Positions 1 to 36,116 of a DNA stretch of 39,715 bases are shown here, piece after piece (within the stretch, counting starts at the first letter, position 1; each line of letters starts with the position of its first letter). Where the stretch lies: the IMG/VR virus record IMGVR_UViG_2541047728_000019; one strand, 5' to 3'. The notes beneath the pieces are model-generated. The model saw only the letters and a list, made by a program, of their open reading frames with translations. It had not been told where the DNA came from and ran no database searches. The position numbers and the translations under genes are program-made. The DNA comes from a virus. Lineage: Duplodnaviria; Heunggongvirae; Uroviricota; Caudoviricetes.

Positions 1-516
1 ATGAAATTTAAAAAATGTCTTCTGCCTGTGGCAATGTTAGCGTCATTCACTCTGGCAGGATGCCAGTCAAATGCTGATGATCATGCCGCCGATGTTTATC
101 AAACCGATCAACTGAATACCAAACAAGAAACTAAAACCGTTAATATTATTTCCATTCTTCCCGCAAAAGTTGCCGTAGACAACTCCCAAAATAAACGAAA
201 CGCACAAGCCTTCGGCGCGCTTATTGGTGCAGTCGCTGGCGGTGTAATCGGCCACAACGTGGGGTCTGGCAGCAATTCCGGAACGACGGCAGGTGCAGTT
301 GGCGGCGGAGCTGTTGGCGCGGCAGCGGGTTCTATGGTGAATGATAAAACCTTAGTGGAAGGTGTTTCTCTAACGTATAAGGAAGGCACCAAAGTGTATA
401 CCTCCACCCAGGTGGGTAAAGAGTGCCAGTTTACGACAGGTTTAGCCGTTGTTATTACCACGACGTATAACGAAACGCGTATTCAGCCAAATACGAAATG
501 TCCTGAAAAGAGCTAA
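1..516 (+). CDS. Lipoprotein with Gly/Ala-rich glycine-zipper segment
   Basis: Signal peptide ending in lipobox LAGC; long GxxxG-type Gly/Ala run; may be a prophage moron or host flank. Confidence 0.6.
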   Translation: MKFKKCLLPVAMLASFTLAGCQSNADDHAADVYQTDQLNTKQETKTVNIISILPAKVAVDNSQNKRNAQAFGALIGAVAGGVIGHNVGSGSNSGTTAGAVGGGAVGAAAGSMVNDKTLVEGVSLTYKEGTKVYTSTQVGKECQFTTGLAVVITTTYNETRIQPNTKCPEKS

Positions 517-531
517 TGATCAGGAGGAGTC

Positions 532-1071
532 ATGAAGAAAGTTTTTCTTTGCGCCATCTTAGCCTCCTTAAGCTATCCGGCTATCGCCTCATCATTGCAG
601 GATCAACTCTCGGCTGTCGCAGAAGCGGAACAGCAAGGTAAAAATGAAGAGCAAAGGCAGCATGACGAATGGGTCGCGGAGCGCAACAGGGAAATCCAGC
701 AAGAGAAGCAACGTCGCGCAAACGCCCAGGCCGCGGCTAATAAAAGAGCGGCAACGGCAGCGGCGAATAAGAAAGCTCGTCAGGATAAACTGGACGCCGA
801 AGCCACTGCGGACAAAAAACGCGATCAAAGTTATGAAGATGAGCTACGCAGCTTAGAGATTCAGAAACAAAAACTGGCGCTGGCGAAAGAAGAAGCCCGC
901 GTCAAGCGCGAAAACGAATTTATCGATCAGGAACTGAAGCACAAAGCTGCGCAAACCGATGTGGTGCAATCTGAAGCTGACGCAAACAGAAATATGACTG
1001 AAGGCGGTCGCGATCTGATGAAAAGCGTGGGTAAAGCAGAAGAGAACAAATCGGACAGCTGGTTTAACTAA
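532..1071 (+). CDS. Secreted charged coiled-coil protein, unknown function
   Basis: N-terminal signal peptide (MKKVFLCAILASLSYPAIASS); Ala/Lys/Glu/Arg/Gln-rich body; GGAGG Shine-Dalgarno upstream of ATG; 16 bp after previous stop. Confidence 0.55.
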   Translation: MKKVFLCAILASLSYPAIASSLQDQLSAVAEAEQQGKNEEQRQHDEWVAERNREIQQEKQRRANAQAAANKRAATAAANKKARQDKLDAEATADKKRDQSYEDELRSLEIQKQKLALAKEEARVKRENEFIDQELKHKAAQTDVVQSEADANRNMTEGGRDLMKSVGKAEENKSDSWFN

Positions 1072-1143: not shown

Positions 1144-1266
1144 ATTCATAGTGCAGGGTTCAAATCATTCCCACTCAATTATTTACGGATACCATAAACA
1201 ATTGATTGATAACAACTTTCTGCAACATGATTTTCACCGTACCGTTTTATATACCGTCGCCGGAAA

Positions 1267-2390: not shown

Positions 2391-2688
2391 GTTTAGACCT
2401 CGATACTTTGAAAATTTGAACGACGTTACCGCGCGTTTTAATAACCGCAGCCAGCATGACAGCGTTGATAATGACCTCAGATAAATCCACAGCCATTGGC
2501 GTACGTAACCAGATTGCATAGGCGACTCGAACAGGAATACTGGCCGCAGCAACAATCAGGAAATAAGCAAGCCATCCTCCCCACCTTCGATGTTGAGAGC
2601 CGTTACGCCGGAATGTGACAACGCGAATTGCTATGCCAGTGCAAATAACTGCATTGGTGATAAGCAAAAAAAACTCATGCGTTACCAT
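2380..2688 (-). CDS. Small 3-TM holin-like lysis protein (second holin or antiholin)
   Basis: 102 aa with three hydrophobic helices; ATG with GGGGAG SD; sits between holin and endolysin, overlapping both. Confidence 0.55.
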
Positions 2689-3079
2689 CGTCTTTTCTCC
2701 CCGGAATTAACTCGCGTGGATTATCGGAACGGTGATAGAGCCATATACCAATACGCACAGCGACAATTGCTGACACGAATGCGCCTGCAGAGAAAACAAT
2801 CCCTTTTTCAAAAGAGTCCTGCGTGATGGTAGGGATCAGGCTGGCTATGCCGATAAGAATTGATGCTGCTGGTTTGTAAAAGAGAAGGCCGCAAAGAAAG
2901 CTGAGCATCGACAGGAGCACCCGGCGACGGATGGGGTACTCTACTGCAGAGGTAACAAAAATTACCGCCCCAGCCAAAGCCCCTAAAGCAACCTCCGGAG
3001 GGACACCTGCAATAACCGCAGCAAGAGAACCAAAACTAAGCAACTGATTTAATTGCTCACTTGTTACTTGAGCAGACAT
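2675..3079 (-). CDS. Holin-like multi-TM protein
   Basis: 134 aa, 4-5 predicted TM helices, AGGAGA SD; first gene of lysis cassette. Confidence 0.6.
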   Translation of the reverse strand: MSAQVTSEQLNQLLSFGSLAAVIAGVPPEVALGALAGAVIFVTSAVEYPIRRRVLLSMLSFLCGLLFYKPAASILIGIASLIPTITQDSFEKGIVFSAGAFVSAIVAVRIGIWLYHRSDNPRELIPGRKDDGNA

Positions 3080-3138
3080 ACTTTCTCCTGTTTACTATCT
3101 ATAAGCCAGTCAATTATTGATGACTAAACCCGCATAGT

Positions 3139-3150
3139 AAACCATATATG
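3139..3150 (-). promoter_or_regulatory. Copy of recurrent motif (minus strand CATATATGGTTT) about 60 bp upstream of holin start
   Basis: Resembles YATATGTGGTT found upstream of tailspike, portal-proximal gene and nin-region gene; no palindrome partner here. Confidence 0.25.
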
Positions 3151-3360
3151 AATCATTATTGTTCCGTATCATATATCTCAATAAAAGTACTAATGATTTT
3201 ACAGAACGAGCCAGCAGAGTGGGGGCAGTTGTACAGGAACCATAGACTTAATTTTGTATTTAATAATGCTATGGTGTAATAAACCTGAACATGTATTTAA
3301 AATACGTACTGATTCATGATAGAATTCAAAGATAACTTTTCACAAACTCCGTTTTTGATA

Positions 3361-3385: not shown

Positions 3386-6300
3386 TTAACGTTCTTCCAG
3401 AGACTGAATCCGCTCTTTTATCTTATCCATTTCTCTGCGCTGCCATGCTGCCTCGATATAGAATAAGAGATCAGGTCTGACCCCCCATCTAGATCCTGCT
3501 GGCGTTATTTCAACGCGCTCAATGATGTCTTCCATTACCATCACTGGATTATCATCCTCATCAACAATGATGCTCCCGTCATTATCAGTCAGCGGCATTT
3601 CCCTTTGGCCAGTAATGACGTCATCATATACTGCGGGATAATCGTCATAGCAAAGAAAGGCATAGCGGCATGTTGTGCTTTCTTCTTCCATGAGTCCGTG
3701 AGAAATAAGAACATCACGAAGTTGCTGCGCGATTACACCATGATGTATCCTCGCCCCTTCTTCCCCCTTTATAGCGACAGCGTTCAGCCATTTATAAGCG
3801 ATATACCTGACGTCACCCCAGGCATCCAGCAATGCTTCGTCAGGAGAGACCGGCTCTGTCTTTAATGTTCCGTCACTGGTAACCACAGGATTGGAGCCAA
3901 GATAAACTGTCGAGAACCTGTTTCCCGGACCACCAAGAGCATTTACATTATCAAGATAAGGTTTAACATCTCCGTTCTCAAAAAGATGTTCGAGTGCGTT
4001 ATATACCGCGCGACGTGGAGTACTGCTTCTGGAACCATGCAACGTTATCATTGCACCATCTGCTGAAGACGTTGTTTCACCGCCGCTAACGATTAATCTC
4101 TGAGCGGTAACATCATCAGACGGTACTTTCTTCGCAATAATGGCGTAATTACCCTCAAGTTTGACTTCCGCGCGAACTTGTCCTGATGTACCTGCATGGA
4201 CAGTCAGTGACTGGACGGCAACATCATCTGTGAAATCAACGGGTACAGGAACCGTCCTCACGCCTGACGTCGACATAAAAGTAGGAAGCGTTCTGTTAGG
4301 AGTGGCTCCGTAGACAAAATCCCTTGAAACAAATTCTTCCTGTTTAATTTTCACCCTGAAACAATACAAATCAGCCGGGTGACCATCGTGAACATAAGGA
4401 TATTTTCTGTTGTTATCCCCTATGCTCCATGGGTTTAGAAAGTCTTCCCCACCGAAAATGTAGTACAGCCAGTTGTCTTTGATACAAACTGAACCAACAC
4501 CAACCGCAGAGTTAACTATTCCGCCCTGATAAATCTGATCAGTAACATTAACCCACTCTACATTATCCAGACTCCACTCATTGACGTTAACTCTGGTCAT
4601 AAATGTTCTTGGATAATTTCCTGCATAACGGTTATCAGGTTCTCCTCCTTCCCACTCACCAAATGCGCGCTCACTGCCAAAAATAATCAGCTCATCGCCA
4701 ACTTTGGCAAAAGGAAGGTTTGAGTGATGAACATTATTTGGGAAGCGAAGAGAATTCCATGATGTACCTAAATCAGAGCTTCTGTGCAATGAACTACCGG
4801 GTTGAGTACTTAATGTCCCCCTGGTCGTCAGATACAGAATGCCATCATAATATTTTACACATGGCTCAGATGCATTCGCCTCATATTCTACAGGTATGCG
4901 TCTGCGAACAAAGCTACCAGGAGAACCGAAAGCATCAGAGAAATAGAGTATCCCAAGCTCGCGTGGACCAATATCACCATTATGGTAGCCAACAGCAAAA
5001 CTGTTATCGCTAATCGTCGCAAAACTGTGAATCTCAGTAACAGGAGTGCTTCCGTCAACAAAAGAAGGAATAGTTCCAAGACTGGTTTTTCTCCATGGTG
5101 ACGAGTGAAATGATGTGCCAAAACTCCAGTATCTACCCTCGTTATTCTGATCCACATCCTGGGTATTTTTCGTCGTAACTGTAAAGGTATTTTTATCAAT
5201 AACAGTAGTCACCGTCATATTCCCGGTAACACCTGTAACACCAGAGTTTGAGAAGTTGACAAAATCACCAGCAAATAATCCGTGATCAGTAATGCGAATA
5301 TAAGCGACTTGCTGATTTGCTGCTTTCGTTATACCACCATAAACGCGAAGGCTGCGACTCATTGGGCGATCCCACAACTCTGCAACCTGCAGTTTATTTC
5401 CGCTCACGGTCCGCGTCTCAATTACAGCAAAAAGGCGATTTCTGACAACCCCCATACTCATGCAGTGATAGTTAACTGTGGGATAGTTTTCATGTAAATC
5501 TGTAAGCCATTCCGGCGTTGTCCAGGTCTTCCCGTCATCTCCTGAGCGAACCCATGCAACATGGAGGTTATTTACACCATGGCGGTCTCCAGCCATAAAA
5601 GGCGCATAGATGACATTGTCATATACAAACGTTTTATCCTGCGTCCAGGCGTTGTACCACGGTGTATCTGTAATTTTAAATAACTCTCCCTGGATAAAAT
5701 CTTCAGAAGCATAAAAAAGAGGTTGGCCCGGTATTCTCTCAAATAAAAAACGAGCATTTTTAAATCGACTGACATCCGGAAGAGTTGATACTTTAAAAGT
5801 AAGCCCTAATCCGTCAATTTTATAACCTGGAGATGAGGCTTCAAGGCACGCGCTTATTGCAGTGGAATCGTCATTTATACCATCACCAACAGCTCCAAAA
5901 TCTTTGGGGCTAATAGCATCACGCATTTTATCCTGGAACGTTCGGTACACAGCCCCAGAACCATACTGAATAAACCAACCAAAACCACCAACAACCCCGG
6001 AGATTGCAGCATCGACATAATTACGCATTGAGCGATTATTTACAGCGTCCTGCTCAAATGATGGATCTGCAAGGTTAGAAATTTTGTTTTGCTTTGCATC
6101 GTAATATTTTGCAAGCAAAGATGGTTTCATCAATGCACGTCTGAACCACCCAAAACATTGCTGGATCAGCATCGTCAGATAGTCAAAGGCATCTTCATGC
6201 ACCTCGGGGAAAAATTTTCCCTGATTACGAAGATCAGTCTCCTGCACCACATCAAGCACACGATCTATCGTAATTCGCCATCCAGCAGCAAGCGGCGACG

Positions 6301-6505
6301 GAAGAACAACAGAACCGCCACTATAAGTGCCCGCCCCAGTTACCGTATAACCGGTATCCAGTACTAGTTCTGTTACGTTACCGTTAAGGTCAGACACCTG
6401 AACAACCAGGTCGGATTTTTTGAAAATACGGAAGGTATACGGAAATGATGTCGTAACGCCGTTACCAGTGTATTCGTTGTGGTCAACTTCGGTTGAGACC
6501 GTCAT
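3386..6505 (-). CDS. Tailspike: N-terminal particle-binding domain, central beta-helix-type depolymerase region, C-terminal intramolecular chaperone (peptidase S74-like) domain
   Basis: 1039 aa; DFGAVGDGINDDSTAI motif typical of pectate-lyase-like beta-helix enzymes; C-terminal DEALLDAWG...YKWLNAVAIKGEEGARIHHGVIAQQ matches self-cleaving chaperone domains; GGAGA SD. Confidence 0.85.
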   Translation of the reverse strand: MTVSTEVDHNEYTGNGVTTSFPYTFRIFKKSDLVVQVSDLNGNVTELVLDTGYTVTGAGTYSGGSVVLPSPLAAGWRITIDRVLDVVQETDLRNQGKFFPEVHEDAFDYLTMLIQQCFGWFRRALMKPSLLAKYYDAKQNKISNLADPSFEQDAVNNRSMRNYVDAAISGVVGGFGWFIQYGSGAVYRTFQDKMRDAISPKDFGAVGDGINDDSTAISACLEASSPGYKIDGLGLTFKVSTLPDVSRFKNARFLFERIPGQPLFYASEDFIQGELFKITDTPWYNAWTQDKTFVYDNVIYAPFMAGDRHGVNNLHVAWVRSGDDGKTWTTPEWLTDLHENYPTVNYHCMSMGVVRNRLFAVIETRTVSGNKLQVAELWDRPMSRSLRVYGGITKAANQQVAYIRITDHGLFAGDFVNFSNSGVTGVTGNMTVTTVIDKNTFTVTTKNTQDVDQNNEGRYWSFGTSFHSSPWRKTSLGTIPSFVDGSTPVTEIHSFATISDNSFAVGYHNGDIGPRELGILYFSDAFGSPGSFVRRRIPVEYEANASEPCVKYYDGILYLTTRGTLSTQPGSSLHRSSDLGTSWNSLRFPNNVHHSNLPFAKVGDELIIFGSERAFGEWEGGEPDNRYAGNYPRTFMTRVNVNEWSLDNVEWVNVTDQIYQGGIVNSAVGVGSVCIKDNWLYYIFGGEDFLNPWSIGDNNRKYPYVHDGHPADLYCFRVKIKQEEFVSRDFVYGATPNRTLPTFMSTSGVRTVPVPVDFTDDVAVQSLTVHAGTSGQVRAEVKLEGNYAIIAKKVPSDDVTAQRLIVSGGETTSSADGAMITLHGSRSSTPRRAVYNALEHLFENGDVKPYLDNVNALGGPGNRFSTVYLGSNPVVTSDGTLKTEPVSPDEALLDAWGDVRYIAYKWLNAVAIKGEEGARIHHGVIAQQLRDVLISHGLMEEESTTCRYAFLCYDDYPAVYDDVITGQREMPLTDNDGSIIVDEDDNPVMVMEDIIERVEITPAGSRWGVRPDLLFYIEAAWQRREMDKIKERIQSLEER

Positions 6506-6609: not shown

Positions 6610-6624
6610 TTACCTTTCGGGTAA
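6610..6624. promoter_or_regulatory. Operator-like palindrome TTACC-TTTCG-GGTAA
   Basis: Perfect 5+5 dyad; member of a 12-site family in this window. Confidence 0.55.
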
Positions 6625-6661: not shown

Positions 6662-6681
6662 TACTGTATAAATATACAGTT
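6662..6681 (+). promoter_or_regulatory. LexA (SOS) box TACTGTATAAATATACAGTT
   Basis: CTGT-N8-ACAG with AT-rich spacer, matches LexA consensus taCTGT(AT)4ACAGta; centred about 30 bp upstream of ATG 6701. Confidence 0.6.
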
Positions 6682-6700
6682 ATTGCATGGAGAAGATAAG

Positions 6701-6958
6701 ATGCAGCAGTATCACTATCCACTGGAAGACGGATTTACCGAAAGGATTCACACGCCGGGAGGCGTCAGGTCACTGGTGGAGGGATCGCACTTGATGAAAT
6801 TACTCCGGGATCTCGATAAGGATGGATTTAATGTCGATGGCCCACTTGCCGAACTGACTGCACTGATTAACTACGTCACCAGCTCACAGATGTCTATGCA
6901 GGATCTGCAAACACATCTCGACTATTGTGCCGAACAATTACGAAAACAAACCCGGTAA
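6701..6958 (+). CDS. Small antirepressor-like protein: stand-alone copy of the Ant C-terminal module
   Basis: 85 aa; clear similarity (IHTPGGV..LMKLL..DG.NV.G..AELT...Y...DLQTH.DY) to the C-termini of both Ant proteins; GGAG SD 8 nt upstream; LexA box in promoter. Confidence 0.55.
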   Translation: MQQYHYPLEDGFTERIHTPGGVRSLVEGSHLMKLLRDLDKDGFNVDGPLAELTALINYVTSSQMSMQDLQTHLDYCAEQLRKQTR

Positions 6959-6964
6959 ATTTAA

Positions 6965-6982
6965 AGGCCGCAAGAGCGGCCT
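6965..6982. terminator. Bidirectional terminator hairpin aggccgc-aaga-gcggcct
   Basis: 7-bp GC stem between convergent genes; near-identical hairpin at 9612-9629. Confidence 0.5.
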
Positions 6983-7709
6983 ATCGTTTCGCTTTGTGCT
7001 CGTCCCAGCACGTTTTGCACCATGCCATTAAGCCGTCCGCATTTTGATTATTAGGGTAAAAGCTGGTCCGTTTTCTGCGGACATTACAAATTGGGCACCA
7101 CTTCATATGGCGTGTATTCTTTGGGCCATCGAGACACCTTGCACACCACTTAGTCAATCCATCTGGATTTTTTGACGATTTCCGGAATTTGTCATATGGA
7201 AGGTTTATTCTGCATCGCAAACACTGCTTGCGGCCACTTGAAACTCTGTTAGCTGATTCTTCTTTTGGCGGCGATACAGAAGGTATTCTTGCTGGCTCTG
7301 ATACTGCCTGAGGTGCTTTTTTAGATGACTGAGACGATATGTCATCACCAGGGAATCTTCCATGATATGCCGGACGCGTTGACACTCCAGGTGGAAGCTC
7401 AGCTGTAAACGGCTTTGGCTGAATCAGTTGCCTCTCTTTTGCTAACTCCTGCTGTTTATAATATGTCTGGATTACCGCGCTATCATAAGCAGGAGGTACG
7501 GAAATATTAGGCGCATTATCTCCCGTTTTTTGAAACTGAGTGGAGGTGTGTTCTATCACCTGTGTACGATTAATCGTTATCTCCCCATCTTCAGTCTTTA
7601 TCGTTTTGTTATGATTAACGACCGTACGATCAGAGATCTTAGTCTTGTTCTGGTTGATAACGTAAATAATCACCGCAACCACACCAACAACTACCCAGAA
7701 AACTTCCAT
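6981..7709 (-). CDS. Membrane-anchored protein with two tandem CxxC-x22-CxxC zinc-ribbon repeats
   Basis: N-terminal TM helix, Pro/Ser-rich linker, repeats CLRC...DGLTKWCARC and CPIC...DGLMAWCKTC; strong GAGGAAAGG SD; operator palindrome about 20 bp upstream. Confidence 0.6.
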   Translation of the reverse strand: MEVFWVVVGVVAVIIYVINQNKTKISDRTVVNHNKTIKTEDGEITINRTQVIEHTSTQFQKTGDNAPNISVPPAYDSAVIQTYYKQQELAKERQLIQPKPFTAELPPGVSTRPAYHGRFPGDDISSQSSKKAPQAVSEPARIPSVSPPKEESANRVSSGRKQCLRCRINLPYDKFRKSSKNPDGLTKWCARCLDGPKNTRHMKWCPICNVRRKRTSFYPNNQNADGLMAWCKTCWDEHKAKR

Positions 7710-7729: not shown

Positions 7730-7744
7730 TTACCTTAAAGGTAA
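7730..7744. promoter_or_regulatory. Operator-like palindrome TTACC-TTAAA-GGTAA
   Basis: Perfect dyad immediately upstream of the 7709 gene. Confidence 0.55.
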
Positions 7745-7822
7745 TATCTTGCTTTCAGGTGATCAAGCGTTAAACGCAATCAACCAAATACGGTTGATTT
7801 TAATATTTCTTCGCGTTTATCA

Positions 7823-7837
7823 TTACCTTTGCGGTAA
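7823..7837. promoter_or_regulatory. Operator-like palindrome TTACC-TTTGC-GGTAA overlapping a candidate -10
   Basis: Preceded by TTGATT-N18-TATCAT; faces the KilA-N antirepressor gene. Confidence 0.55.
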
Positions 7838-8104
7838 ATTTACATCGCACTCCTCTTGTGCCATAGTAATCGGGCACTGGCAAAATCCAGTGCCGGGATT
7901 GGTCTCCCGGATTACTACAGAGGCACATATGCCGCATAAGCGGTTTTTTTATGTGTAAAGCGCACCTATTCTATGGTGGGCTGTGTGGGGGCACCGAAAG
8001 GTGCGCCGGGTTCCTTTGTAGCCGGTAAGACCAACTCTGCACAGTTCACCACCATCTGATTGGTCTCAGCGGTGGTGATTAACCTAACTACAAAGGTGAT
8101 CGCC

Positions 8105-8797
8105 ATGAATACCAAACCTTCCATCTTTTCCTTTGAGTCATCCTGCCAGATCCGTATGTTCATGATTGACGGAGAACCTTGGTTTGTCACCAAAGATGTG
8201 TGCAATGCTTTGAATATTGATGTTACACAAGCGAGAAAACTTGATAAAAAAGGCTGGAACAAAAAGGGGCTGTATTCAATACAGACCCCTGGTGGAATAC
8301 AAGAACTATCCATCGTTTCAGAATCAGGTCTCTACATCCTTATTCTGCGTTGCAAAGAGGCAATGACTGAGGGAACGAGAGCATTCAGATTTCTTGAATG
8401 GGTTACAGGTGAGGTTCTTCCTCAGATCCGCCGCACCGGAAGTTACATTAAAAACTCGCTCCCGCAGGAAGAACGCATAAAGATGGTTGCCGACCAGGTA
8501 GCCAACGCCACAGCATCAGCAGTGATGCAGGCAATGAAGATAGAGAACAAAACCTACAGTGCCCCACTGAAGCCCGGCTACCGCAGCCTGATTCATTCTC
8601 CGTCTGGTGTTCTCGGCCTGACGGAGCACTCACTGCTGATGAATCTGTTGAACCAGTTACAGGAAGACGGGCACGACGTATCGGGCGCGGCGGCGGAGCT
8701 GACCACCATGTTCTGCTACATCGTCGGTGTGAGCAAATGCCTGCGTGATATCCAGACTCACGCGGAGTACATCAACGACAAGGCAGGGTTCTTCTGA
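8105..8797 (+). CDS. Antirepressor, Bro-N/KilA-N N-terminal domain plus shared Ant C-terminal module
   Basis: Bro-N signature (FVTKDVCNAL...SESGLYILILR...FLEWVTGEVLPQIRRTGSY); start MNTKPS at 8105; C-terminal 77 aa near-identical to the other Ant. Confidence 0.8.
   Translation: MNTKPSIFSFESSCQIRMFMIDGEPWFVTKDVCNALNIDVTQARKLDKKGWNKKGLYSIQTPGGIQELSIVSESGLYILILRCKEAMTEGTRAFRFLEWVTGEVLPQIRRTGSYIKNSLPQEERIKMVADQVANATASAVMQAMKIENKTYSAPLKPGYRSLIHSPSGVLGLTEHSLLMNLLNQLQEDGHDVSGAAAELTTMFCYIVGVSKCLRDIQTHAEYINDKAGFF
8564..8797 (+). repeat. Left arm of a 234-bp inverted repeat (about 95 percent identical to 9689-9922)
   Basis: Codon-by-codon comparison by eye: 11 differences, 10 synonymous; encodes the shared Ant C-terminal module. 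Confidence 0.8.
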
Positions 8798-9012: not shown

Positions 9013-9552
9013 GTGTTAAGTGAAGAAATGCAATTTGCCATGGCTGTGGCTCAAATCGTAAGTGCAGTCGCGGTTTCGCTTGGCTTGTTCATAGCTATCG
9101 CTACTATTATTTATAATGTAAATACAGCGAGAAAAGTACACACTTCAGTATTCCTTGGTGAAAGCAGGTTTGATGTAGATTATAAGAAAGGCCTATCTAC
9201 TATGCGCCGCATTCACGAGTCGAACAAATCATTCCGCTCTTATATGTATCCAAGCAATGGGCAGGCTGATCTTACGGATGAAGAAAAGATAGAGAAGAGA
9301 GAAATAATTTACTGTCTAGGTTTCTACGAACGCATGGCTGTGAGCGTGAAGCGGAAAACTTATGATGAGACCATGATTAAGGAAGTATTTTACAGCTCCG
9401 TTGTAAATAACTATCAGATTGCGCTACCTCTTATACAAGCTATTAGAGAAAAAGAAAACATAAACACATATTTTAAAGAATATGAATGGTTGGCCACACG
9501 ATGGAAGGATTGTCCATTGAAGGATAAATCCCCGTGGTACAAGTTTTGGTAA
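9013..9552 (+). CDS. Membrane-anchored protein, unknown function (candidate superinfection-exclusion or abortive-infection factor)
   Basis: GTG start with GGAG SD; N-terminal TM helix then about 150-aa soluble domain; AT-rich relative to neighbours. Confidence 0.6.
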   Translation: MLSEEMQFAMAVAQIVSAVAVSLGLFIAIATIIYNVNTARKVHTSVFLGESRFDVDYKKGLSTMRRIHESNKSFRSYMYPSNGQADLTDEEKIEKREIIYCLGFYERMAVSVKRKTYDETMIKEVFYSSVVNNYQIALPLIQAIREKENINTYFKEYEWLATRWKDCPLKDKSPWYKFW

Positions 9553-9688: not shown

Positions 9689-9922
9689 TCAGAAGAACCC
9701 TGCCTTGTCGTTGATGTATTCCGCGTGCGTCTGGATATCACGCAGGCATTTGCTCACACCAACGATGTAGCAGAACATGGTGGTCAGCTCCGCCGCCGCG
9801 CCCGATACATCGTGCCCGTCTTCCTGTAACTGGTTCAGCAGATTCATCAGCAGTGAGTTCTCCGTCAGGCCGAGAACACCCGACGGCGAATGAATCAGAC
9901 TGCGGTAGCCTGGCTTCAATGG
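9689..9922 (-). repeat. Right arm of the 234-bp inverted repeat
   Basis: Reverse complement aligns to 8564-8797 with about 95 percent identity. Confidence 0.8.
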
Positions 9923-10627
9923 ATAACCATAACATTTTGTCTGTGTTTTAATTGCCTCACGAAGCGCATCTAACATCTTGACTGCCACTTCATCATTCTC
10001 TGATGCAGATCCAGCAGGGAGATACTCCCCTTCAAGCGGAACCCGAGCAACAAGAGACAACGCTTCGGCAAATTGATCTTCACCAATTTCTTTGTACGAA
10101 CAGCCAAAATGAGATTTCAGTGACGACCACATGGTGATCATCGCCTTAGCCTGTTTTTCTTTTGGCAGAGACTGACCGCGACTCATGACGAGTTGTTTAA
10201 TGGCTTCCTGCTGTTCAGTTGTTATTTTACCCGGCAACGCCTTTTTAGCTTTGCGTGGGTTAACCACATGGCCTTTAGTCCAGTACTCGTAGAGCACATC
10301 GTCACACTCTTCCTGATACTGGATTACCTTGTCGCGGATTTCAGGGCGGACTTTGTTAGGGCTGATGCTGTTCAACCAAGCTGCCAATTTTCGTAAAGCC
10401 ATACAAATCATGGCTTGCACCCCACCGGCAGAAGGTATGGTGATTTCCACCATACCCTTCGAGAAGCGTTGAGAAATCTTCTTATGTTGAGATTTCCAGT
10501 CTAGCCCCATTCCCTCAACGATAGGTTTCATTGGGGTATACGGTTCGCCGTTGTGATTGACAACATAAAGCTCTGCGCCGTGGAATGGCACGTTGATAGT
10601 AGATACTGCTGTTGCTATACTCGTCAT
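9689..10627 (-). CDS. ant: Antirepressor, AntA-type N-terminal domain plus shared Ant C-terminal module
   Basis: N-terminal PFHGAELYVVNHNGEPYTPMKPIVEGMGLDW resembles AntA; downstream of Arc-like gene as in P22 immI. Confidence 0.8.
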   Translation of the reverse strand: MTSIATAVSTINVPFHGAELYVVNHNGEPYTPMKPIVEGMGLDWKSQHKKISQRFSKGMVEITIPSAGGVQAMICMALRKLAAWLNSISPNKVRPEIRDKVIQYQEECDDVLYEYWTKGHVVNPRKAKKALPGKITTEQQEAIKQLVMSRGQSLPKEKQAKAMITMWSSLKSHFGCSYKEIGEDQFAEALSLVARVPLEGEYLPAGSASENDEVAVKMLDALREAIKTQTKCYGYPLKPGYRSLIHSPSGVLGLTENSLLMNLLNQLQEDGHDVSGAAAELTTMFCYIVGVSKCLRDIQTHAEYINDKAGFF

Positions 10628-10676
10628 GTCGTTAATTCCTATACGTAGTTTTACGATACTGAAGCCCTGACGGTCT

Positions 10677-10690
10677 GGCCACCGTGGGGC
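10677..10690. promoter_or_regulatory. GC-rich dyad GGCCACCGTGGGGC between arc-like and ant
   Basis: Near-palindrome; second copy at 10882-10896. Confidence 0.35.
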
Positions 10691-10699
10691 TTCGCTGTT

Positions 10700-10867
10700 T
10701 TATGCCACGCTATTCTTCTCACCAGTGAGTCCATACACTTTCCTCAGCTGATAGATAATCTCTGTATTGAACTTTCGGCATTCTTTTTCGCCATTTCTTT
10801 CAATAGCTAACTTCACATCGTCCGGAAAACGAACTCGTCGTTGACACATCTCTTTTGCTTTTTGCAT
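10700..10867 (-). CDS. arc: Arc-like ribbon-helix-helix repressor
   Basis: 55 aa; RVRFPDDVKLAIERNGEKECRKFNTEIIYQLRKVYG parallels P22 Arc; AGGAGA SD before ATG 10867. Confidence 0.7.
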   Translation of the reverse strand: MQKAKEMCQRRVRFPDDVKLAIERNGEKECRKFNTEIIYQLRKVYGLTGEKNSVA

Positions 10868-10987: not shown

Positions 10988-11419
10988 ATGAGCAGAGAAG
11001 ATCCACAACTAAGGATCAGACTTCCCGTCGAAGTAAAAGAAAAAATAGAAATTTCTGCAAAAGCCAATAAGCGATCAATGAACGCTGAAATAGTACAACG
11101 TCTTGACACCAGCTTTCTGAAAGATATTCATGAAGATGACGTAATTTCTGCTTATGAAGCAAAAATCATTGCAAACAATGCACGACATGAAATATCAAAT
11201 ATTATTTTCAAAAGAACCTTTAATGAAATTAATAAGAAAATAACACTTGGACATACAAGTTTTTATATAAACCTTAATGACCTTGAACTGGAATCACTTG
11301 CAGATAATGATTACCAGATCATCTTTGAAAAAACATTTAATAAGCTCAATGAACTAGGTTACATCATCTGTGAAAACTCATGGGATGCAGATGGTTTTGG
11401 AATTGAAATACCTGAATAG
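10988..11419 (+). CDS. mnt: Mnt-like ribbon-helix-helix repressor with about 95-aa C-terminal extension
   Basis: MSREDPQLRIRLPVEVKEKIEISAKANKRSMNAEIVQRL closely parallels the P22 Mnt N-terminus; divergent from arc-ant; very AT-rich. Confidence 0.7.
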   Translation: MSREDPQLRIRLPVEVKEKIEISAKANKRSMNAEIVQRLDTSFLKDIHEDDVISAYEAKIIANNARHEISNIIFKRTFNEINKKITLGHTSFYINLNDLELESLADNDYQIIFEKTFNKLNELGYIICENSWDADGFGIEIPE

Positions 11420-11482
11420 GAAGAACAAAAGGCGTGTACATATTACACGTCTTTAATACAATTGAAAAACGCCACATTACTG

Positions 11483-12073
11483 ATGTATGTTACAACAAGG
11501 AGCGATATTTTGAAAACCATATCTATATTAAAGGTTGCATTAGGCGTCGCTATTATTTTGACTCTCTCAATATTGTTTTATTTTTACCACAAACAAACTG
11601 CTATTGCTCTTGATAGTCACGCGGCAAACTCATTTTTCTCAGAGTACATAGTGCCGCTATCAGGAAGCGGTATAACAAATAAATATACTGACTATGACAT
11701 CAAATATGGAATTGATGATGGGGAGACTATTGTATTACATGTAATCATTAAAAACCTAATGACAGTAAATAAAAATACAGACTTCAACGATAAAAATACA
11801 ATACATCACAACAACAGCAAAACATTAATTTCTTATAGTAGCAACATCTATACGGATAAATACCTAAAATACATATCAGAAGATACAATAAAAGAAACCC
11901 GCGAAAAGTTAAAAAACATATATTGTGCATCCGGCAGTTTTCACAAATTATCGCCGCAAGAGCGTTTATTCTACGAAGCAAGAAAACAACGTAAGTCAAT
12001 AATATTACATTATTATGCTGATTCAGGGGAGACACTCATATTTAATATTGGGGTTTCCCCTGAATCATGCTAA
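11483..12073 (+). CDS. Membrane-anchored protein, unknown function, at the sieA-equivalent position
   Basis: N-terminal TM helix, Asn/Lys/Tyr-rich soluble domain, very AT-rich; start uncertain (ATG 11483 or TTG 11510 preceded by AAGGAG). Confidence 0.55.
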   Translation: MYVTTRSDILKTISILKVALGVAIILTLSILFYFYHKQTAIALDSHAANSFFSEYIVPLSGSGITNKYTDYDIKYGIDDGETIVLHVIIKNLMTVNKNTDFNDKNTIHHNNSKTLISYSSNIYTDKYLKYISEDTIKETREKLKNIYCASGSFHKLSPQERLFYEARKQRKSIILHYYADSGETLIFNIGVSPESC

Positions 12074-22771: not shown

Positions 22772-22822
22772 CTTCTTTCTCCATTAGTGGGTCTGTTACG
22801 ACCCACAGGTTAATAACAGGCG

Positions 22823-27142: not shown

Positions 27143-27219
27143 GTGGCATTAGCTCAGTTGGACAGAGCAACCGCCTTCTAAGCGGTTGGTCGCAGGTTCG
27201 AATCCTGCATGCCACGCCA
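27143..27219 (+). tRNA. tRNA-Arg (anticodon UCU, reads AGA)
   Basis: Cloverleaf folded by hand: acceptor GTGGCAT/ATGCCAC, D-arm GCTC..GAGC, anticodon stem ACCGC/GCGGT with loop CTTCTAA, T-arm GCAGG-TTCGAATC-CCTGC, 3' CCA encoded. Confidence 0.85.
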
Positions 27220-29358: not shown

Positions 29359-29960
29359 TGATTGCCATCCTGACGTTCTTTCAGTCTCTTCCTGGCTGCC
29401 GCTATGCGATCAGCAATTGTCACATTCACATTAACATCCAGGCGTTCTTTGAATGCATTGACATCGACGTGCTTACCAATCAGTTCGAGGTTCTTCACCT
29501 TGTCAGGCCATTTAATTTTTTTGAGGATTGTCTCTATCGAATCCTCGTCCATGTTCATGATGGTCGATGACAGATCAAAGCCGCTAAGCGTAGTGCGCCA
29601 GATTTTCGGCCACTCGCGGATTGGCTTAAGGCTCCCATCGTCGTTGAGGATATCAATCACGTCCATCTGGTCGATCTCCACCAGGCGCATGAGAACGTAA
29701 TCAGCACTGACGCGCATTCGTTTGTTGCGCTCCTCCATCAACTCGGCAATCCGTTTCTGAATGCGTTCATCGCGCATCATGACACTGGCTTTAACTGCCG
29801 CTGTATTTGGGGAGAATCCTGCATTAATCGCAGCCTGAGTCTGATTTTCAGGCGTTTTGATGTATGACTGGCAATAAGCCTCCTGCATTGCTGTTAGTGG
29901 CTTAAATTGCGTTGATTTGCGTTTATAGGTTTTAGGTTCAGCAGGCATCATAACCACCAT
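29355..29960 (-). CDS. Terminase small subunit (putative)
   Basis: Directly upstream of terL with overlapping stop/start; start uncertain (ATG 29960/29951/29948 or TTG 30029). Confidence 0.7.
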   Translation of the reverse strand: MVVMMPAEPKTYKRKSTQFKPLTAMQEAYCQSYIKTPENQTQAAINAGFSPNTAAVKASVMMRDERIQKRIAELMEERNKRMRVSADYVLMRLVEIDQMDVIDILNDDGSLKPIREWPKIWRTTLSGFDLSSTIMNMDEDSIETILKKIKWPDKVKNLELIGKHVDVNAFKERLDVNVNVTIADRIAAARKRLKERQDGNQ

Positions 29961-30025
29961 GGTAATAGTTACCGTTGTGGTAATAGTACCATGCAAAATA
30001 AAGCCGCCATAGTTGGCGGCAGTAT

Positions 30026-32806: not shown

Positions 32807-32821
32807 TTACCTCTGAGGTAA
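32807..32821. promoter_or_regulatory. Operator-like palindrome TTACC-TCTGA-GGTAA next to the 32803 start codon
   Basis: Perfect dyad. Confidence 0.55.
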
Positions 32822-32826
32822 TTAAA

Positions 32827-32837
32827 AACCACATAAG
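32827..32837 (-). promoter_or_regulatory. Recurrent motif (minus strand CTTATGTGGTT) between two palindromes
   Basis: Third copy of the YATATGTGGTT family. Confidence 0.3.
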
Positions 32838-32868
32838 ACACGAAATCAATAGAGTTTAGAATATTTTG

Positions 32869-32883
32869 TTACCCAACAGGTAA
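32869..32883. promoter_or_regulatory. Operator-like palindrome TTACC-CAACA-GGTAA
   Basis: Perfect dyad downstream of the replication-operon terminator. Confidence 0.55.
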
Positions 32884-34840: not shown

Positions 34841-35071
34841 TCATGAGTAGAAGAAGTATGCCAGTTCTGCTTTTGAGCGCAGCCATTGTCTTGTTTTACA
34901 GGCTTTAAAAAGCCCATTCATCAATACTTTACCTGGCATTTTGCGCTTACCTGTTAAGTGAGTCTGGATATAGTGACTCGTCGTTCCGGCTTCCTGTGCG
35001 AAGGCTTCACGCTCATCCGGAGTAAGTGCAAGCCAGTGCTTTTTGAAATCGAAATGTCCGTTATCGCTCAT
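34841..35071 (-). CDS. Cro-like HTH regulator (first gene of leftward early operon)
   Basis: 76 aa with HTH segment; divergent from repressor-like gene across a three-operator region. Confidence 0.6.
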   Translation of the reverse strand: MSDNGHFDFKKHWLALTPDEREAFAQEAGTTSHYIQTHLTGKRKMPGKVLMNGLFKACKTRQWLRSKAELAYFFYS

Positions 35072-35106
35072 AGCTATTGCCTGATATTTATTTCAGATAA
35101 TAAATA

Positions 35107-35121
35107 TTCACCCATAAGGTA
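35107..35121. promoter_or_regulatory. Operator-like site TCACC-CATAA-GGTAA (one mismatch)
   Basis: First of three sites in the cro/repressor intergenic region. Confidence 0.45.
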
Positions 35122-35137
35122 ACAAAAATCAAGGATA

Positions 35138-35152
35138 GTTACCTGTGTGGTG
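35138..35152. promoter_or_regulatory. Operator-like site TTACC-TGTGT-GGTGC (degenerate right half)
   Basis: Adjacent to 35155-35169 site. Confidence 0.4.
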
Positions 35153-35154
35153 CA

Positions 35155-35169
35155 TTTACCTGTTGGGTA
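35155..35169. promoter_or_regulatory. Operator-like palindrome TTACC-TGTTG-GGTAA
   Basis: Perfect dyad; third site of OR-like cluster. Confidence 0.55.
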
Positions 35170-35225
35170 ATATTGCTTTAAATTGAATCATCTACTGATT
35201 CATATATGAGGCGATTTTCCAGAAA

Positions 35226-35810
35226 ATGAAAAGTATCCAGGACGTCCGCAGGCAAAATCTCAACGACTTGATCGACCGTGAATTCAATGGTGTTCAGACG
35301 CGGATGGCTGAAAAACTTGGAACTCAGGCAAATCTGGTAAACCGCTGGGCTCTTGGCAAGAAGGTTATCGGCGACCAGGTTGCACGAAAAATTGAAGCTG
35401 CCGCCAATAAACCCCGTAACTGGCTTGATATCGATCGCTCGCTTTCTCAGGAAGGTTTTCAGCCTGTCGGCCCAAGCGACATTGGCCAGCTGGCGGCTCA
35501 CAACCTGGAACGCTGGATGAGCGAAAGCCGCGACCTTTCAACACAGGGAAAACTTCACCGCGCATCCGGCGTAGCCCAGGTGACAATCAGCCGCCTATTA
35601 AACAATGAGGTCAGCGTTTCCATTTCCACCCTGGAGAATGTTGCATCCGCATTCGGGCGTCACGGCTATGAATTACTGATTCACCCGCACGACCCTGCGA
35701 CCATCAACTATGATCGCTCGCGCTACGCATTGTTACCCGAAACCGAGAAAGCAAAGATCGAAAGTTACATTGAATTTGTCATCAACCAGAACGAAAAAAA
35801 CAAACAATAA
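35226..35810 (+). CDS. Repressor-like DNA-binding protein with two HTH-like segments and no S24 peptidase domain
   Basis: 194 aa; HTH-like QTRMAEKLGTQANLVNRWALGKK and a second in the C-half; no Ser/Lys autocleavage motifs seen. Confidence 0.6.
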   Translation: MKSIQDVRRQNLNDLIDREFNGVQTRMAEKLGTQANLVNRWALGKKVIGDQVARKIEAAANKPRNWLDIDRSLSQEGFQPVGPSDIGQLAAHNLERWMSESRDLSTQGKLHRASGVAQVTISRLLNNEVSVSISTLENVASAFGRHGYELLIHPHDPATINYDRSRYALLPETEKAKIESYIEFVINQNEKNKQ

Positions 35811-35831
35811 AACCATATTTTTCAGTAAGTA

Positions 35832-35855
35832 AGCCGCCTTATGGCGGCTTTTTTA
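35832..35855 (+). terminator. Rho-independent terminator after repressor-like gene
   Basis: agccgcc-ttat-ggcggct then T-run. Confidence 0.65.
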
Positions 35856-35867
35856 TTGCCTATTCGA

Positions 35868-35882
35868 TTACCTGATGGGTAA
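35868..35882. promoter_or_regulatory. Operator-like palindrome TTACC-TGATG-GGTAA upstream of early promoter
   Basis: Perfect dyad. Confidence 0.55.
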
Positions 35883-35901
35883 TTTTTTTAACTCATATCT
35901 A

Positions 35902-35930
35902 TTGACATCAAACCATATACGCATAATTAT
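35902..35930 (+). promoter_or_regulatory. Candidate sigma70 promoter TTGACA-N17-AATTAT for the rightward early operon
   Basis: Consensus -35, 17-bp spacer, A/T-rich -10, flanked by two operator palindromes. Confidence 0.5.
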
Positions 35931-35944
35931 TACCTCAACGGTAA
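35930..35944. promoter_or_regulatory. Operator-like palindrome TTACC-TCAAC-GGTAA at predicted +1
   Basis: Perfect dyad abutting the -10. Confidence 0.55.
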
Positions 35945-35963
35945 CAGACCGAGGTAACAAGTT

Positions 35964-36116
35964 ATGCAGTGGAAAATCATCAACGGTTGGTACTGCGTTA
36001 CTGCATGCGGATTCATGAGCTGGAAGTTCCGCACCTTACAGGAAGGCATTAAGTGGGCTTTCGTCAGCAAAGAAGCTCGCGATGTGGCCAACGATAACGA
36101 GATATGGGAGGGCTGA
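35964..36116 (+). CDS. Small Cys-containing ORF (50 aa), absent from ORF track
   Basis: ATG with GAGG 9 nt upstream; first ORF after the early promoter; stop overlaps next start region. Confidence 0.3.
   Translation: MQWKIINGWYCVTACGFMSWKFRTLQEGIKWAFVSKEARDVANDNEIWEG

Follow-up and report, generated by a model that had tools for sequence, protein, structure and literature searches.

How a prophage repressor that lacks a self-cleaving domain is inactivated after DNA damage is the question raised by the rep gene described here. The window, i.e., the whole stretch of 39,715 nucleotides that was analysed (IMG/VR record IMGVR_UViG_2541047728_000019), holds a prophage of the phiV10/epsilon15 type (Uetakevirus) integrated in the E. 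coli chromosome. Window bases 1–1071 comprise yfgH and yfgI of the host, and the att core is at 1163–1179; on these grounds the window was rejected as a free phage genome. The immunity region (Table 1) was present in 539 of 5426 complete E. coli genomes. The cargo genes at 6981..7709, 9013..9552 and 11462..12073 gave no PADLOC defence match.

Table 1. Features of the immunity system, with positions in the window.
Feature	Position	Strand	Remarks
Putative Rep operator, TTACC-N5-GGTAA	6610..6624		upstream of ant LexA box, in ant/tailspike divergent region
LexA (SOS) box, TACTGTATAAATATACAGTT	6662..6681		20 nt upstream of ant ATG; near-consensus
ant, 85-aa small antirepressor	6701..6958	+	SPC32H Ant orthologue; divergent from tailspike gene 3386..6505 (-)
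Two TTACC-N5-GGTAA palindromes	7730..7837		7730–7744 and 7823–7837; upstream of isrK/C4/Bro-N-Ant unit
isrK-type sRNA and C4-type antisense RNA element	7874..8056	+	7874–7950 and 7969–8056; upstream of and adjoining Bro-N fusion
Second antirepressor, Bro-N with Ant-type C-terminal module	8105..8797	+	Pfam Bro-N, 2.1e-13; phrog_450 at residues 147–228
Third antirepressor, P22_AR_N with Ant-type C-terminal module	9689..10627	-	Pfam P22_AR_N, 5.9e-45; phrog_450 at residues 230–310
sar-type antisense RNA	10629..10696	+	opposite arc-ant intercistronic region; Rfam RF00262
Arc-like small repressor gene	10700..10867	-	upstream of third ant; phrog_228 'Arc-like repressor', 3.4e-5
Mnt-position gene, N-terminal Arc/ribbon-helix-helix domain	10988..11419	+	divergent from arc-ant; Pfam Arc, 1.2e-14; phrog_1388, 5.1e-72
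TTACC-N5-GGTAA	26806..26820		intergenic, upstream of portal gene block; SPC32H equivalent at 3175
TTACC-N5-GGTAA	29969..29983		upstream of small terminase gene; one-mismatch copy at 29951–29965
TTACC-N5-GGTAA pair	32807..32883		32807–32821 and 32869–32883; intergenic gap 3' of replication genes
Cro-position gene, 76 aa	34841..35071	-	divergent from rep; first gene of early operon leading to replication genes
rep/cro candidate operator cluster	35108..35170		TCACC-N5-GGTAA 35108–35122; partial 35139–35151; TTACC-N5-GGTAA 35156–35170
rep, immunity repressor	35226..35810	+	194 aa, ATG start; stop codon included
Terminator-like stem-loop followed by T run	35831..35850	+	directly 3' of rep
Control region of early operon starting at 35964 (recE/recT side)	35868..35944	+	palindromes 35868–35882 and 35930–35944

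Repressor gene and protein

The sequence-only reading had recognised rep as an ORF encoding a 194-aa protein with two HTH-like segments, lying divergent from a Cro-like gene, and its description was borne out, the coordinates being exactly as first given. The ATG start is supported because residues M1-K2-S3-I4 are invariant across 35 aligned homologues and agree with the N-terminal end of chain 5D50_A in PDB. Pfam placed HTH_3 in two stretches, the best being residues 106–147, and a YdaS/HTH match at residues 21–61 of the N-terminal part, while the AlphaFold2 model consisted of two helical bundles (residues 4–59 and 85–193) with a low-confidence linker at 74–83. The phiV10 record carries an annotated terminator at the place equivalent to the stem-loop behind rep. 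A 107-aa ORF (35178..35501) that overlaps rep on the opposite strand was taken as a putative shadow of the rep frame. In RefSeq, rep has no label beyond 'helix-turn-helix domain-containing protein'.

The gene in the Cro position, across a 154-bp intergenic region from rep, encodes a product that matched PHROG 35 ('transcriptional repressor', E 5.6e-13) and was 76% identical to SPC32H_042. Since this product had no PDB match at E<=10 and no Pfam match, it owes the Cro-like label to its position and to PHROG 35.

Rep was 100% identical to phiV10 gp40, to vB_EcoP_ZX5 ORF21 and to the corresponding protein in 13 other phage records. Its identity with the Rep of Salmonella phage SPC32H was 41.8% over 98% of the query (tblastn), and phmmer aligned residues 1–190 with residues 2–197 of the SPC32H Rep chain 5D50_A (E 4e-42). 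The C-terminal domain aligned with PDB 5D4Z as well, and the best PDB matches found by Foldseek were 5D50 and 5D4Z (both SPC32H Rep), followed by other HTH proteins, with a TM-score for the C-terminal domain of 0.81 (normalised to the target). SPC32H Rep keeps 25 of the 26 columns that are invariant in the Rep family. Thus, as in an SPC32H-type Rep, homology to 5D50_A is full-length and two all-helical HTH-fold domains are joined through a linker and a catalytic domain is absent; the window also contains a small Ant of the 5D50_E family and a candidate LexA box at the ant promoter.

When the repressor of ZX5, identical to Rep, was overexpressed, free phage was abolished and endolysin and holin transcripts were cut by 99.97–99.99% (PMC9782041). 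The product of rep is the immunity repressor of this phiV10/epsilon15-type prophage, and the system is one already known, in that it matches what is established for the SPC32H relative. Some database records that say only 'helix-turn-helix protein' or 'VapI antidote' would suit an accessory HTH regulator (antitoxin-like or a moron) in a prophage whose true immunity repressor is encoded elsewhere. This alternative is very improbable: rep occupies the classic divergent position relative to the Cro-position gene, with operator-like clusters on its flanks, the identical protein shut off phage production and lytic transcription as just described, in SPC32H the orthologous gene carries the repressor annotation and its product has a solved structure bound to its antirepressor, and PADLOC returned zero matches for Rep. 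Clear-plaque or non-lysogenising mutants of epsilon15 and SPC32H are reported to map to the repressor gene.

Absence of a self-cleaving domain

Lysogens that carry this type of repressor respond to DNA damage. Thus, the ZX5 lysogen is inducible by mitomycin C (PMC9782041), and prophages of the phiV10 species were induced 21- to 47-fold by a microcin that the preprint concerned (bioRxiv 10.64898/2026.05.26.727859) places, in its title and conclusions, among DNA-damaging bacteriocins. Induction of this kind is what would be seen if Rep resembled lambda CI or LexA and underwent RecA*-stimulated self-cleavage at a cryptic site, the Ant genes being accessory, but taken alone it fits either mechanism. 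The domain content and modelled structure of Rep make this explanation scarcely credible. Rep has no self-cleaving domain: its Pfam domains are HTH only, with no match to Peptidase_S24 at E<=1, and the Pfam content of 86 members of the Rep family was likewise nothing but HTH domains (S24 in 0/86). The S24 peptidase is a beta fold, whereas the AlphaFold2 model of Rep is all-helical with zero beta strand, and no S24 structure was present among the 50 best PDB fold matches listed for Rep by Foldseek. Because residues 1–190 of 194 align with the solved, HTH-only Rep of SPC32H, there is no room for another domain. Neither an Ala-Gly nor a Cys-Gly dipeptide occurs anywhere in the 194-aa sequence. 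Rep thus lacks both the C-terminal Peptidase_S24 domain with its Ser-Lys dyad and the AG/CG linker cleavage site that mark the LexA/lambda CI family.

These findings agree with the earlier claim that S24 motifs are missing, on which Pfam, structure prediction and fold search concur, and no cryptic peptidase was found by Pfam, among the 86 homologues, in the AlphaFold2 model or by Foldseek against PDB. RecA-mediated autocleavage, judged unlikely in the sequence-only reading, would be unlikely at the sequence level for a protein with HTH domains only. The Rep of SPC32H reportedly stays uncleaved during the SOS response.

Candidate Rep operators

The palindrome TTACC-N5-GGTAA is likely the operator of Rep, an assignment drawn from motif statistics and from the database annotation of epsilon15. 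The window contains 10 exact and 5 one-mismatch copies as against 0.65 expected, and all of the exact copies (10/10) lie in non-coding DNA, which makes up approximately 9% of the prophage (binomial p ~4e-11). Sites are kept at orthologous loci in SPC32H, epsilon15 and phiV10. The cluster between rep and the Cro-position gene, which has orthologous clusters in the same three phages, overlaps a promoter-like site on the minus strand (35125..35097). On the other side of rep, the two palindromes of the recE/recT-side operon, with starts 62 bp apart, flank and overlap a second promoter-like site (35902–35930, TTGACA-17-AATTAT), and the equivalent sites in the epsilon15 GenBank record are annotated 'protein_bind: repressor'. 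The palindrome at 6610–6624, ahead of the LexA box of ant, likewise has an epsilon15 orthologue annotated as repressor-binding. Starts of the pair behind the replication genes are again 62 bp apart, with the same spacing in the orthologous pairs of SPC32H, epsilon15 and phiV10, and the site upstream of the small terminase gene has a counterpart at position 12 of SPC32H, ahead of terS (start 47).

Small antirepressor and LexA box

The most probable agent of Rep inactivation is a small antirepressor under SOS control. The product of ant matched a single PDB entry, 5D50_E ('Anti-repressor protein', E 4.1e-47), together with phrog_450, phrog_15539 and, weakly, phrog_1760 ('anti-repressor'). It was 86–88% identical to SPC32H Ant, the gene of which occupies the same genomic position, and identical to the small Ant of ZX5. 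Ant was found in 35 phage records and full-length Rep in 36, almost the same set, and essentially every phage record with one of the two also has the other. Most phage records label the small Ant 'hypothetical protein', and PHROG marks phrog_450, the Ant family, as 'unknown function'.

The LexA box ahead of ant, from which LexA control of this gene is predicted, departs from the 20-nt consensus at 2 positions, and the window contains no other such box; CTGT-N8-ACAG also occurs at 22793 and 27335, but neither of these sites is within 6 mismatches of the consensus. The box is conserved in five relatives, including SPC32H, epsilon15, phiV10 and TL-2011b. In several Salmonella prophages, as outlined in a review (PMC7380047, citing Kim & Ryu 2013), self-cleavage of LexA leads to synthesis of an antirepressor and inhibition of the lytic repressor. 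For SPC32H, PMC9638917 describes Rep as binding DNA as a tetramer, and a tetrameric Ant as binding two Rep dimers and breaking the Rep tetramer. Antirepressor-driven induction, as put forward in the sequence-only reading, is supported by analogy, through the homology of Rep to SPC32H Rep and the presence of an Ant orthologue with a LexA box. By the same analogy we infer that the Rep and Ant of this prophage would interact, although the gap between the identity of Rep to its SPC32H counterpart (42%) and that of Ant (86–88%) counts against it.

Fusion antirepressors and their control elements

The Ant-type module occurs in two further genes, and all three Ant-module genes reported from the sequence proved real, with matches to phrog_450 at E values of 9e-48 (small Ant), 5.7e-37 (Bro-N fusion) and 1.6e-35 (P22_AR_N fusion) and 30 invariant columns in the alignment of the three modules. 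The ORF of the Bro-N fusion was listed from a TTG at 8060; the ATG at 8105 was chosen, as in annotated homologues. This protein was 80% identical overall to ZX5 ORF4, with one substitution only from residue ~111 to the C-terminus. The Bro-N antirepressor of ZX5, with a C-terminal module identical to the present one, lowered lysogeny by approximately 1000-fold, the prophage titre falling from 1e9 to 1e6 (PMC9782041). Both RNA elements upstream of the Bro-N fusion scored above the Rfam gathering score (isrK, 74.7 bits vs 50; C4, 78.6 bits vs 45).

The P22_AR_N fusion resembled the small Ant (BLASTP 3e-16), and its last 101 aa were 83% identical to the Bro-N fusion. Its surroundings are those of a P22 immI-type module, with P22_AR_N in the antirepressor, an arc gene upstream, a divergent mnt-like gene and a borderline sar match (44.8 bits vs a gathering score of 43); the TL-2011b orthologue of the upstream gene is annotated as an Arc-like repressor. 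Pfam gave no match to P22_AR_C in the product of 9689..10627, in which the Ant-type module (phrog_450) takes its place. Because the C-terminal part is of the SPC32H-Ant type and not P22_AR_C, the presumed target of the fusions is not a repressor of the C2/CI type but Uetakevirus Rep, and both fusions probably provide further anti-immunity inputs directed at this one Rep.

The existence of these proteins raises the alternative that Rep is uncleavable but the small Ant is not the effective inducer, inactivation of Rep being due mainly to the Bro-N and P22_AR_N fusions, or to proteolysis or dilution. The mismatch in conservation relative to SPC32H (Ant 86–88% vs Rep 42%) would suit such an arrangement, as would the presence of extra Ant-type modules in E. 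coli and Klebsiella relatives and not in Salmonella phages, and the Bro-N fusion of ZX5 is the only antirepressor that has been tested against this exact Rep. We nonetheless consider it unlikely. The small ant and its LexA box were intact in all phiV10-type phages examined, whereas the Ant similarity of the phiV10 Bro-N protein ends within the module, as would be expected of a truncated protein. Moreover, no LexA box was found ahead of either of the two large ant genes, and therefore the fusions alone cannot explain SOS induction. SPC32H Rep also has, in its C-terminal domain, the residues that are invariant in the Rep family.

Proposed mechanism and significance

We put at about 0.8 the probability that this prophage is governed by an SPC32H-like, uncleavable Rep that is inactivated by Ant under LexA control, with the fusions as extra inputs. 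In this proposal, the N-terminal HTH of Rep would read TTACC-N5-GGTAA operators in the rep/cro region, at the recE/recT-side operon and elsewhere between genes. The C-terminal HTH-fold domain would not bind DNA but would build the dimer and tetramer and serve as a docking platform for the antirepressor. Since Rep has no peptidase domain, RecA* could not make it cut itself, and DNA damage would be sensed indirectly through LexA bound to the box over the ant control region, 28 kb from rep and beside the tailspike gene. Self-cleavage of LexA would allow Ant to be made and to bind the C-terminal domains of Rep, thereby breaking the DNA-binding tetramer and lifting repression. The fusion antirepressors would be wired to isrK/C4 RNA or to Arc/Mnt/sar control rather than to LexA. 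The functions of Rep and Ant, the oligomeric mechanism and SOS inducibility are here taken from literature on relatives; the rep gene, its domains, the absence of S24, the homology to the Rep-Ant complex, the conservation of ant with its LexA box and the operator-like motif come from the present analysis.

A more tentative extension, to which we would give somewhat less than even odds, is that one uncleavable Rep is the meeting point of three paralogous but differently wired Ant modules, the module setting the target and Rep repressing broadly. Inputs would then arrive from LexA/SOS through the small Ant, from isrK/C4 through the Bro-N fusion and from Arc/Mnt/sar through the P22_AR_N fusion. 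The shared C-terminal module of ~80 aa would be portable, determining which repressor is targeted, and P22-like and Gifsy/P1-like phages would have supplied the antirepressor chassis onto which it was grafted. Through the sites before ant, the Bro-N ant unit, the terminase genes and the portal genes, Rep would directly repress nearly every transcription unit, its own antirepressors included.

That DNA damage induces these common prophages although their repressor is not cleaved would be explained by a Rep/Ant switch of the SPC32H type equipped with a LexA box. No new question is opened thereby, the mechanism and the structure having been in print since 2013 and 2016, and the practical value lies in correct annotation of the Rep/Ant pair. 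The only angle that is modestly new is the possible convergence of three differently wired antirepressors on one uncleavable repressor. The placing of one type of Ant C-terminal module under three control circuits could provide a compact system for studying antirepressor specificity and the recombination of inputs.

Comparison with known systems

The closest characterised system is that of SPC32H (Kim & Ryu 2013, J Virol 87:11775; Kim et al. 2016, PNAS 113:E2480; PDB 5D50, 5D4Z), a phage of the same genus with a two-HTH-domain Rep of ~195 aa that can be aligned end to end with the present one, a small Ant of ~86 aa encoded beside the tailspike gene, a LexA box upstream of ant and the operator-like palindrome at orthologous loci. 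The two systems differ in that Rep is only 42% identical, though Ant is 86–88% identical, and in that the prophage in the window has two additional Ant-type modules, carried by larger proteins, with no counterpart in SPC32H. With phiV10 gp40 and ZX5 ORF21 (PMC9782041) there is no difference in the repressor itself, the amino-acid sequences being identical, and with ZX5 the attachment core attgagtgggaatgatt and the small Ant are also the same. The region between the tailspike and tail genes does differ: ZX5 has the small Ant and one Bro-N fusion, whereas the window, like TL-2011b, adds a P22_AR_N fusion under Arc/Mnt/sar control.

With the group of lambda CI, P22 C2 and LexA, in which an HTH is combined with Peptidase_S24 and RecA* assists cleavage, the present system has in common the role of immunity repressor, the divergent rep/cro layout, multiple (here candidate) operators and SOS induction as the outcome. 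Unlike these proteins, Rep has neither an S24 domain nor a cleavage-site dipeptide, and its C-terminal domain is instead a second HTH fold that, by analogy, would serve oligomerisation and Ant binding.

The Ant of SPC32H is said to be structurally distinct from the antirepressors of Siphoviridae and Myoviridae. In having a small antirepressor under predicted LexA repression, the present system resembles those of Tum (coliphage 186) and of the antirepressors of Gifsy/Fels-2 (Shearwin 1998; Lemire 2011, PMC3121763). The common logic, as given in a review (PMC7380047), is inactivation of an uncleavable repressor by protein-protein contact, and the same review calls these antirepressors homologous to Tum.

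The third ant is laid out like P22 immI (mnt/arc/sar/ant), in that it encodes P22_AR_N, follows an Arc-like gene, lies near a sar match and has a gene of the Arc fold divergent from it. The second, preceded by isrK and C4 RNA matches, is laid out like the modules of P1 c4 and Gifsy-1, the isrK-orf45-anrP locus of Gifsy-1 being the analogue of the arrangement at 7874..8056 (PMC4825925). In contrast with P22 immI and the Gifsy-1/P1 modules, both fusions end not in P22_AR_C but in the SPC32H-Ant-type module (phrog_450).

Repressor gene and protein

The putative immunity repressor gene, rep, had exactly the position, strand and length claimed in the sequence-only reading (ATG start, 194 codons and a stop), and its start is considered sound since the first four residues (MKSI) were invariant across 35 aligned Rep homologues and the N-terminus coincided with that of the solved homologue in a PDB search. 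Two helix-turn-helix (HTH)-like segments, as had been proposed, were evident both from Pfam, which placed HTH_3 in two stretches (best 106-147), gave hits to related families of HTH domains and matched YdaS/HTH in the N-terminal part (residues 21-61), and from an AlphaFold2 model (35 homologues as input, mean pLDDT 78.7), which was all-helical, its two bundles (4-59 and 85-193) being connected by a linker modelled with low confidence (74-83). The PHROGs families for Rep were those of a transcriptional regulator and repressor.

The reported lack of Peptidase_S24 (S24), the domain of LexA/CI repressors, was borne out by Pfam, which gave no S24 match to Rep at E<=1. Detection of a cryptic peptidase domain had been named beforehand as the result that would speak against this claim, and none was seen in the homologues, the model, a fold search or a dipeptide check. 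None of 86 Rep homologues from a large protein collection (nearly all 190-200 aa) carried a Pfam domain beyond HTH families, 5D50 and 5D4Z led the PDB matches of the model, with other HTH_3 proteins ranking next and no peptidase among the 50 matches listed, and neither Ala-Gly nor Cys-Gly occurred anywhere in the Rep sequence. The divergent gene described as Cro-like was also present; its 76-aa product matched PHROG 35 'transcriptional repressor' (E 5.6e-13) and was 76% identical to SPC32H_042, and it had no match in Pfam or the PDB, so that 'Cro-like' is a positional label.

Rep residues 1-190 aligned to PDB chain 5D50_A 'Repressor' (E 4e-42) and residues 89-190 to 5D4Z, which by their titles are the Rep-Ant complex of Salmonella phage SPC32H and the Rep C-terminal domain. 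Of 26 family-invariant Rep residues, 25 were present in SPC32H Rep. All sequence-testable features of the SPC32H-type Rep family were found for rep, and both features tested for the LexA/CI S24 family were absent. Rep was 100% identical to gp40 of phiV10 (annotated 'putative transcriptional repressor, two helix-turn-helix motifs'), to ORF21 of E. coli phage vB_EcoP_ZX5 (ZX5) and to many others, 75-78% identical to Enterobacter phage proteins, 45% to Klebsiella phage proteins and 42% to the epsilon15 and SPC32H repressors.

Prophage context

The window is an integrated prophage, and its phage is a Uetakevirus. The host segment (1-1071) occurred in 5351 of the 5426 complete genomes, the attachment core is that of phiV10, epsilon15 and ZX5 (PMC9782041), and the right end of the window falls short of the integrase. 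The immunity region was 97-98.5% identical to those of ZX5, HEMP4, TL-2011b and phiV10. The segment comprising rep and both putative operator clusters was matched in 539 of 5426 complete E. coli RefSeq genomes, at at least 95% identity in 538 of these and almost always on the chromosome, where rep is labeled only 'helix-turn-helix domain-containing protein'. The tRNA-Arg gene lies in the same place in SPC32H and ZX5. Three cargo genes of unassigned function were interleaved with the antirepressor genes; one of the two without zinc-finger matches resembled a DUF4760 protein and the other a phrog_8033 protein, and none of the three matched PADLOC defence models.

Features of the window and their coordinates
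Feature	Position	Strand	Remarks
yfgH	1..516		host E. coli gene
yfgI	532..1071		host E. coli gene
Attachment core	1163-1179		attgagtgggaatgatt
Palindrome	6610		exact 15-bp site; upstream of ant
LexA box	6662-6681		TACTGTATAAATATACAGTT; 20 nt 5' of ant ATG
Small ant	6701..6958	+	ORF 6683..6958, ATG at 6701; phrog_450 at residues 2-85, E 9e-48
Cargo gene	6981-7709	-	242 aa; Cys-rich, endonuclease-VII/HNH-like zinc-finger matches (phrog_6762)
Palindromes	7730, 7823		exact 15-bp sites; upstream of isrK/C4/Bro-N unit
isrK	7874-7950		Rfam, above gathering threshold; directly 5' of Bro-N gene
C4 antisense RNA	7969-8056		Rfam, above gathering threshold; directly 5' of Bro-N gene
Bro-N fusion	8105..8797	+	230 aa; phrog_450 at residues 147-228, E 5.7e-37
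Cargo gene	9013-9552	+	second of three
P22_AR_N fusion	9689..10627	-	312 aa; phrog_450 at residues 230-310, E 1.6e-35
sar RNA	10629-10696		Rfam, borderline (44.8 bits, gathering 43)
Arc-like gene	10700..10867	-	upstream of P22_AR_N gene
Arc-fold gene	10988..11419		mnt position; divergent
Cargo gene	11462-12073	+	third of three
Palindrome	26806		exact 15-bp site; before portal block
tRNA-Arg (anticodon TCT)	27143-27219	+	between portal and terminase blocks
Palindrome	29969		exact 15-bp site; before small terminase gene
Palindromes	32807, 32869		exact 15-bp sites; after replication genes
Cro-position gene	34841..35071	-	divergent from rep
Immunity region	35072-35960		rep and both putative operator clusters
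Palindromes	35108, 35156		35156 exact 15-bp site; rep/cro gap, overlap promoter-like site on - strand
rep	35226..35810	+	putative immunity repressor
Palindromes	35868, 35930		exact 15-bp sites; bracket promoter-like TTGACA-17-AATTAT before recE/recT-side operon

Antirepressor modules

The three Ant-module genes on which the sequence-only reading relied proved real, all three products matching phrog_450 (an 88-position profile). The small Ant protein was 86% identical to SPC32H Ant and matched PDB chain 5D50_E 'Anti-repressor protein' (E 4.1e-47). The LexA box before its gene, with two mismatches to the 20-nt consensus, was the sole such box in the window, and this box, the Shine-Dalgarno sequence and the upstream palindrome were kept in SPC32H, epsilon15, phiV10 and TL-2011b. 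In the phage collection, records with Ant (35) were almost the same as those with full-length Rep (36). Between E. coli and Salmonella phages, Ant was 86-88% identical whereas Rep was 42% identical; the gap was much smaller in Enterobacter and Klebsiella relatives (Rep 78, 75 and 45%; Ant 85.5, 78 and 58-63%). This mismatch could reflect swapping of immunity regions by recombination or an Ant surface tolerant of divergent Reps.

Small Ant matched the P22_AR_N fusion by BLASTP (3e-16), the C-terminal 101 aa of the two fusions were 83% identical, and a four-way alignment of the window modules with SPC32H Ant contained 30 invariant columns. No LexA box was found before either fusion gene. The RNA matches before the Bro-N gene, and a sar match antisense to the gap between the Arc-like and P22_AR_N genes, imply that both large antirepressor genes would be under RNA-based control.

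Over 10024-10693, which covers the sar region and the N-terminal two-thirds of the gene for the 312-aa antirepressor, DNA identity to the ant region of P22-like phage CUS-3 was 94%, and the rest of this gene, with the Ant-type module at its 3' end, did not share that identity; such a break suggests that a recombination junction lies within the gene. In phiV10 gp23, a Bro-N 'anti-immunity protein' (2647-3231), Ant similarity ended about 30 residues into the module (...SLLM), as would fit truncation of its Ant-type module, as opposed to the complete modules of the window, ZX5 and TL-2011b.

Candidate operators

The palindrome TTACC-N5-GGTAA occurred in ten exact and five one-mismatch copies as opposed to 0.65 expected. 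All ten exact copies lay outside genes, in about 9% of the prophage (binomial p ~4e-11, the coding/non-coding split being that of a crude gene model). A terminator-like hairpin ends rep, 5' of the promoter-like region bracketed by the last two copies. Palindromes occupied orthologous places in SPC32H, epsilon15 and phiV10, as did two pairs with a conserved start-to-start spacing of 62 bp, and five orthologous copies are annotated 'protein_bind: repressor' in the epsilon15 GenBank record. According to the account in PMC9638917, Rep binds DNA as a tetramer in which DNA-binding dimer pairs are drawn from different dimers, and the paired palindromes, as putative operators, would fit such binding. 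Should Rep indeed use these palindromes as operators, the number of promoters under its control would greatly exceed that for lambda CI.

Mechanism of induction

The SPC32H mechanism is the best-supported reading for Rep and Ant of the window. SPC32H Rep is reportedly uncleaved in the SOS response, Ant is said to bind Rep through the C-terminal domains of the latter, and phage SPC32N is reported to be lytic owing to one altered base in the LexA box. As summarized in PMC9638917, tetrameric Ant binds two Rep dimers, which breaks the Rep tetramer, and according to PMC7380047 (citing Kim & Ryu 2013), LexA self-cleavage is followed, in several Salmonella prophages, by synthesis of an antirepressor that inhibits the lytic repressor by protein-protein contact. 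Overexpression of the identical E. coli repressor gave zero free phage and lowered holin and endolysin transcripts by 99.97-99.99%, the ZX5 Bro-N antirepressor took prophage titre from 1e9 to 1e6, and mitomycin C brought the titre of free phage to 1e9 (PMC9782041). Prophages of the phiV10 species were induced 21- to 47-fold by a microcin classed with DNA-damaging bacteriocins (2026 preprint).

Antirepressor-driven induction, as earlier proposed, is supported by the SPC32H-type features of rep and by the small Ant orthologue with its LexA box. Since the fusion genes lack such boxes, SOS induction would most plausibly proceed via small Ant; small Ant, the second type of module or both may act on Rep of the window.

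Comparison with known systems

The finding on rep is correct and already known, because the sequence is in many records, phiV10 carries the two-HTH annotation, the ZX5 repressor was tested functionally and the mechanism of uncleavable Rep and LexA-controlled Ant has been published for a congeneric phage. Residual novelty lies in three differently regulated Ant modules that would converge on one Rep and in the widely spread putative operator, neither of which was found described in the searchable literature.

The ant arrangement was like that of SPC32H, where ant is flanked by the last tail gene and by the tailspike gene, from which it diverges. The Arc-like/sar/P22_AR_N layout resembles that of the P22 immI region, in line with the names of the Pfam and Rfam families matched. 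The isrK/C4/Bro-N layout is similar to that of the Gifsy-1 isrK-orf45-anrP unit (PMC4825925). The three-gene antirepressor layout of TL-2011b was identical in arrangement to that of the window, whereas ZX5 had small Ant (annotated 'hypothetical') and a single Bro-N fusion ('ORF4 anti-repressor').
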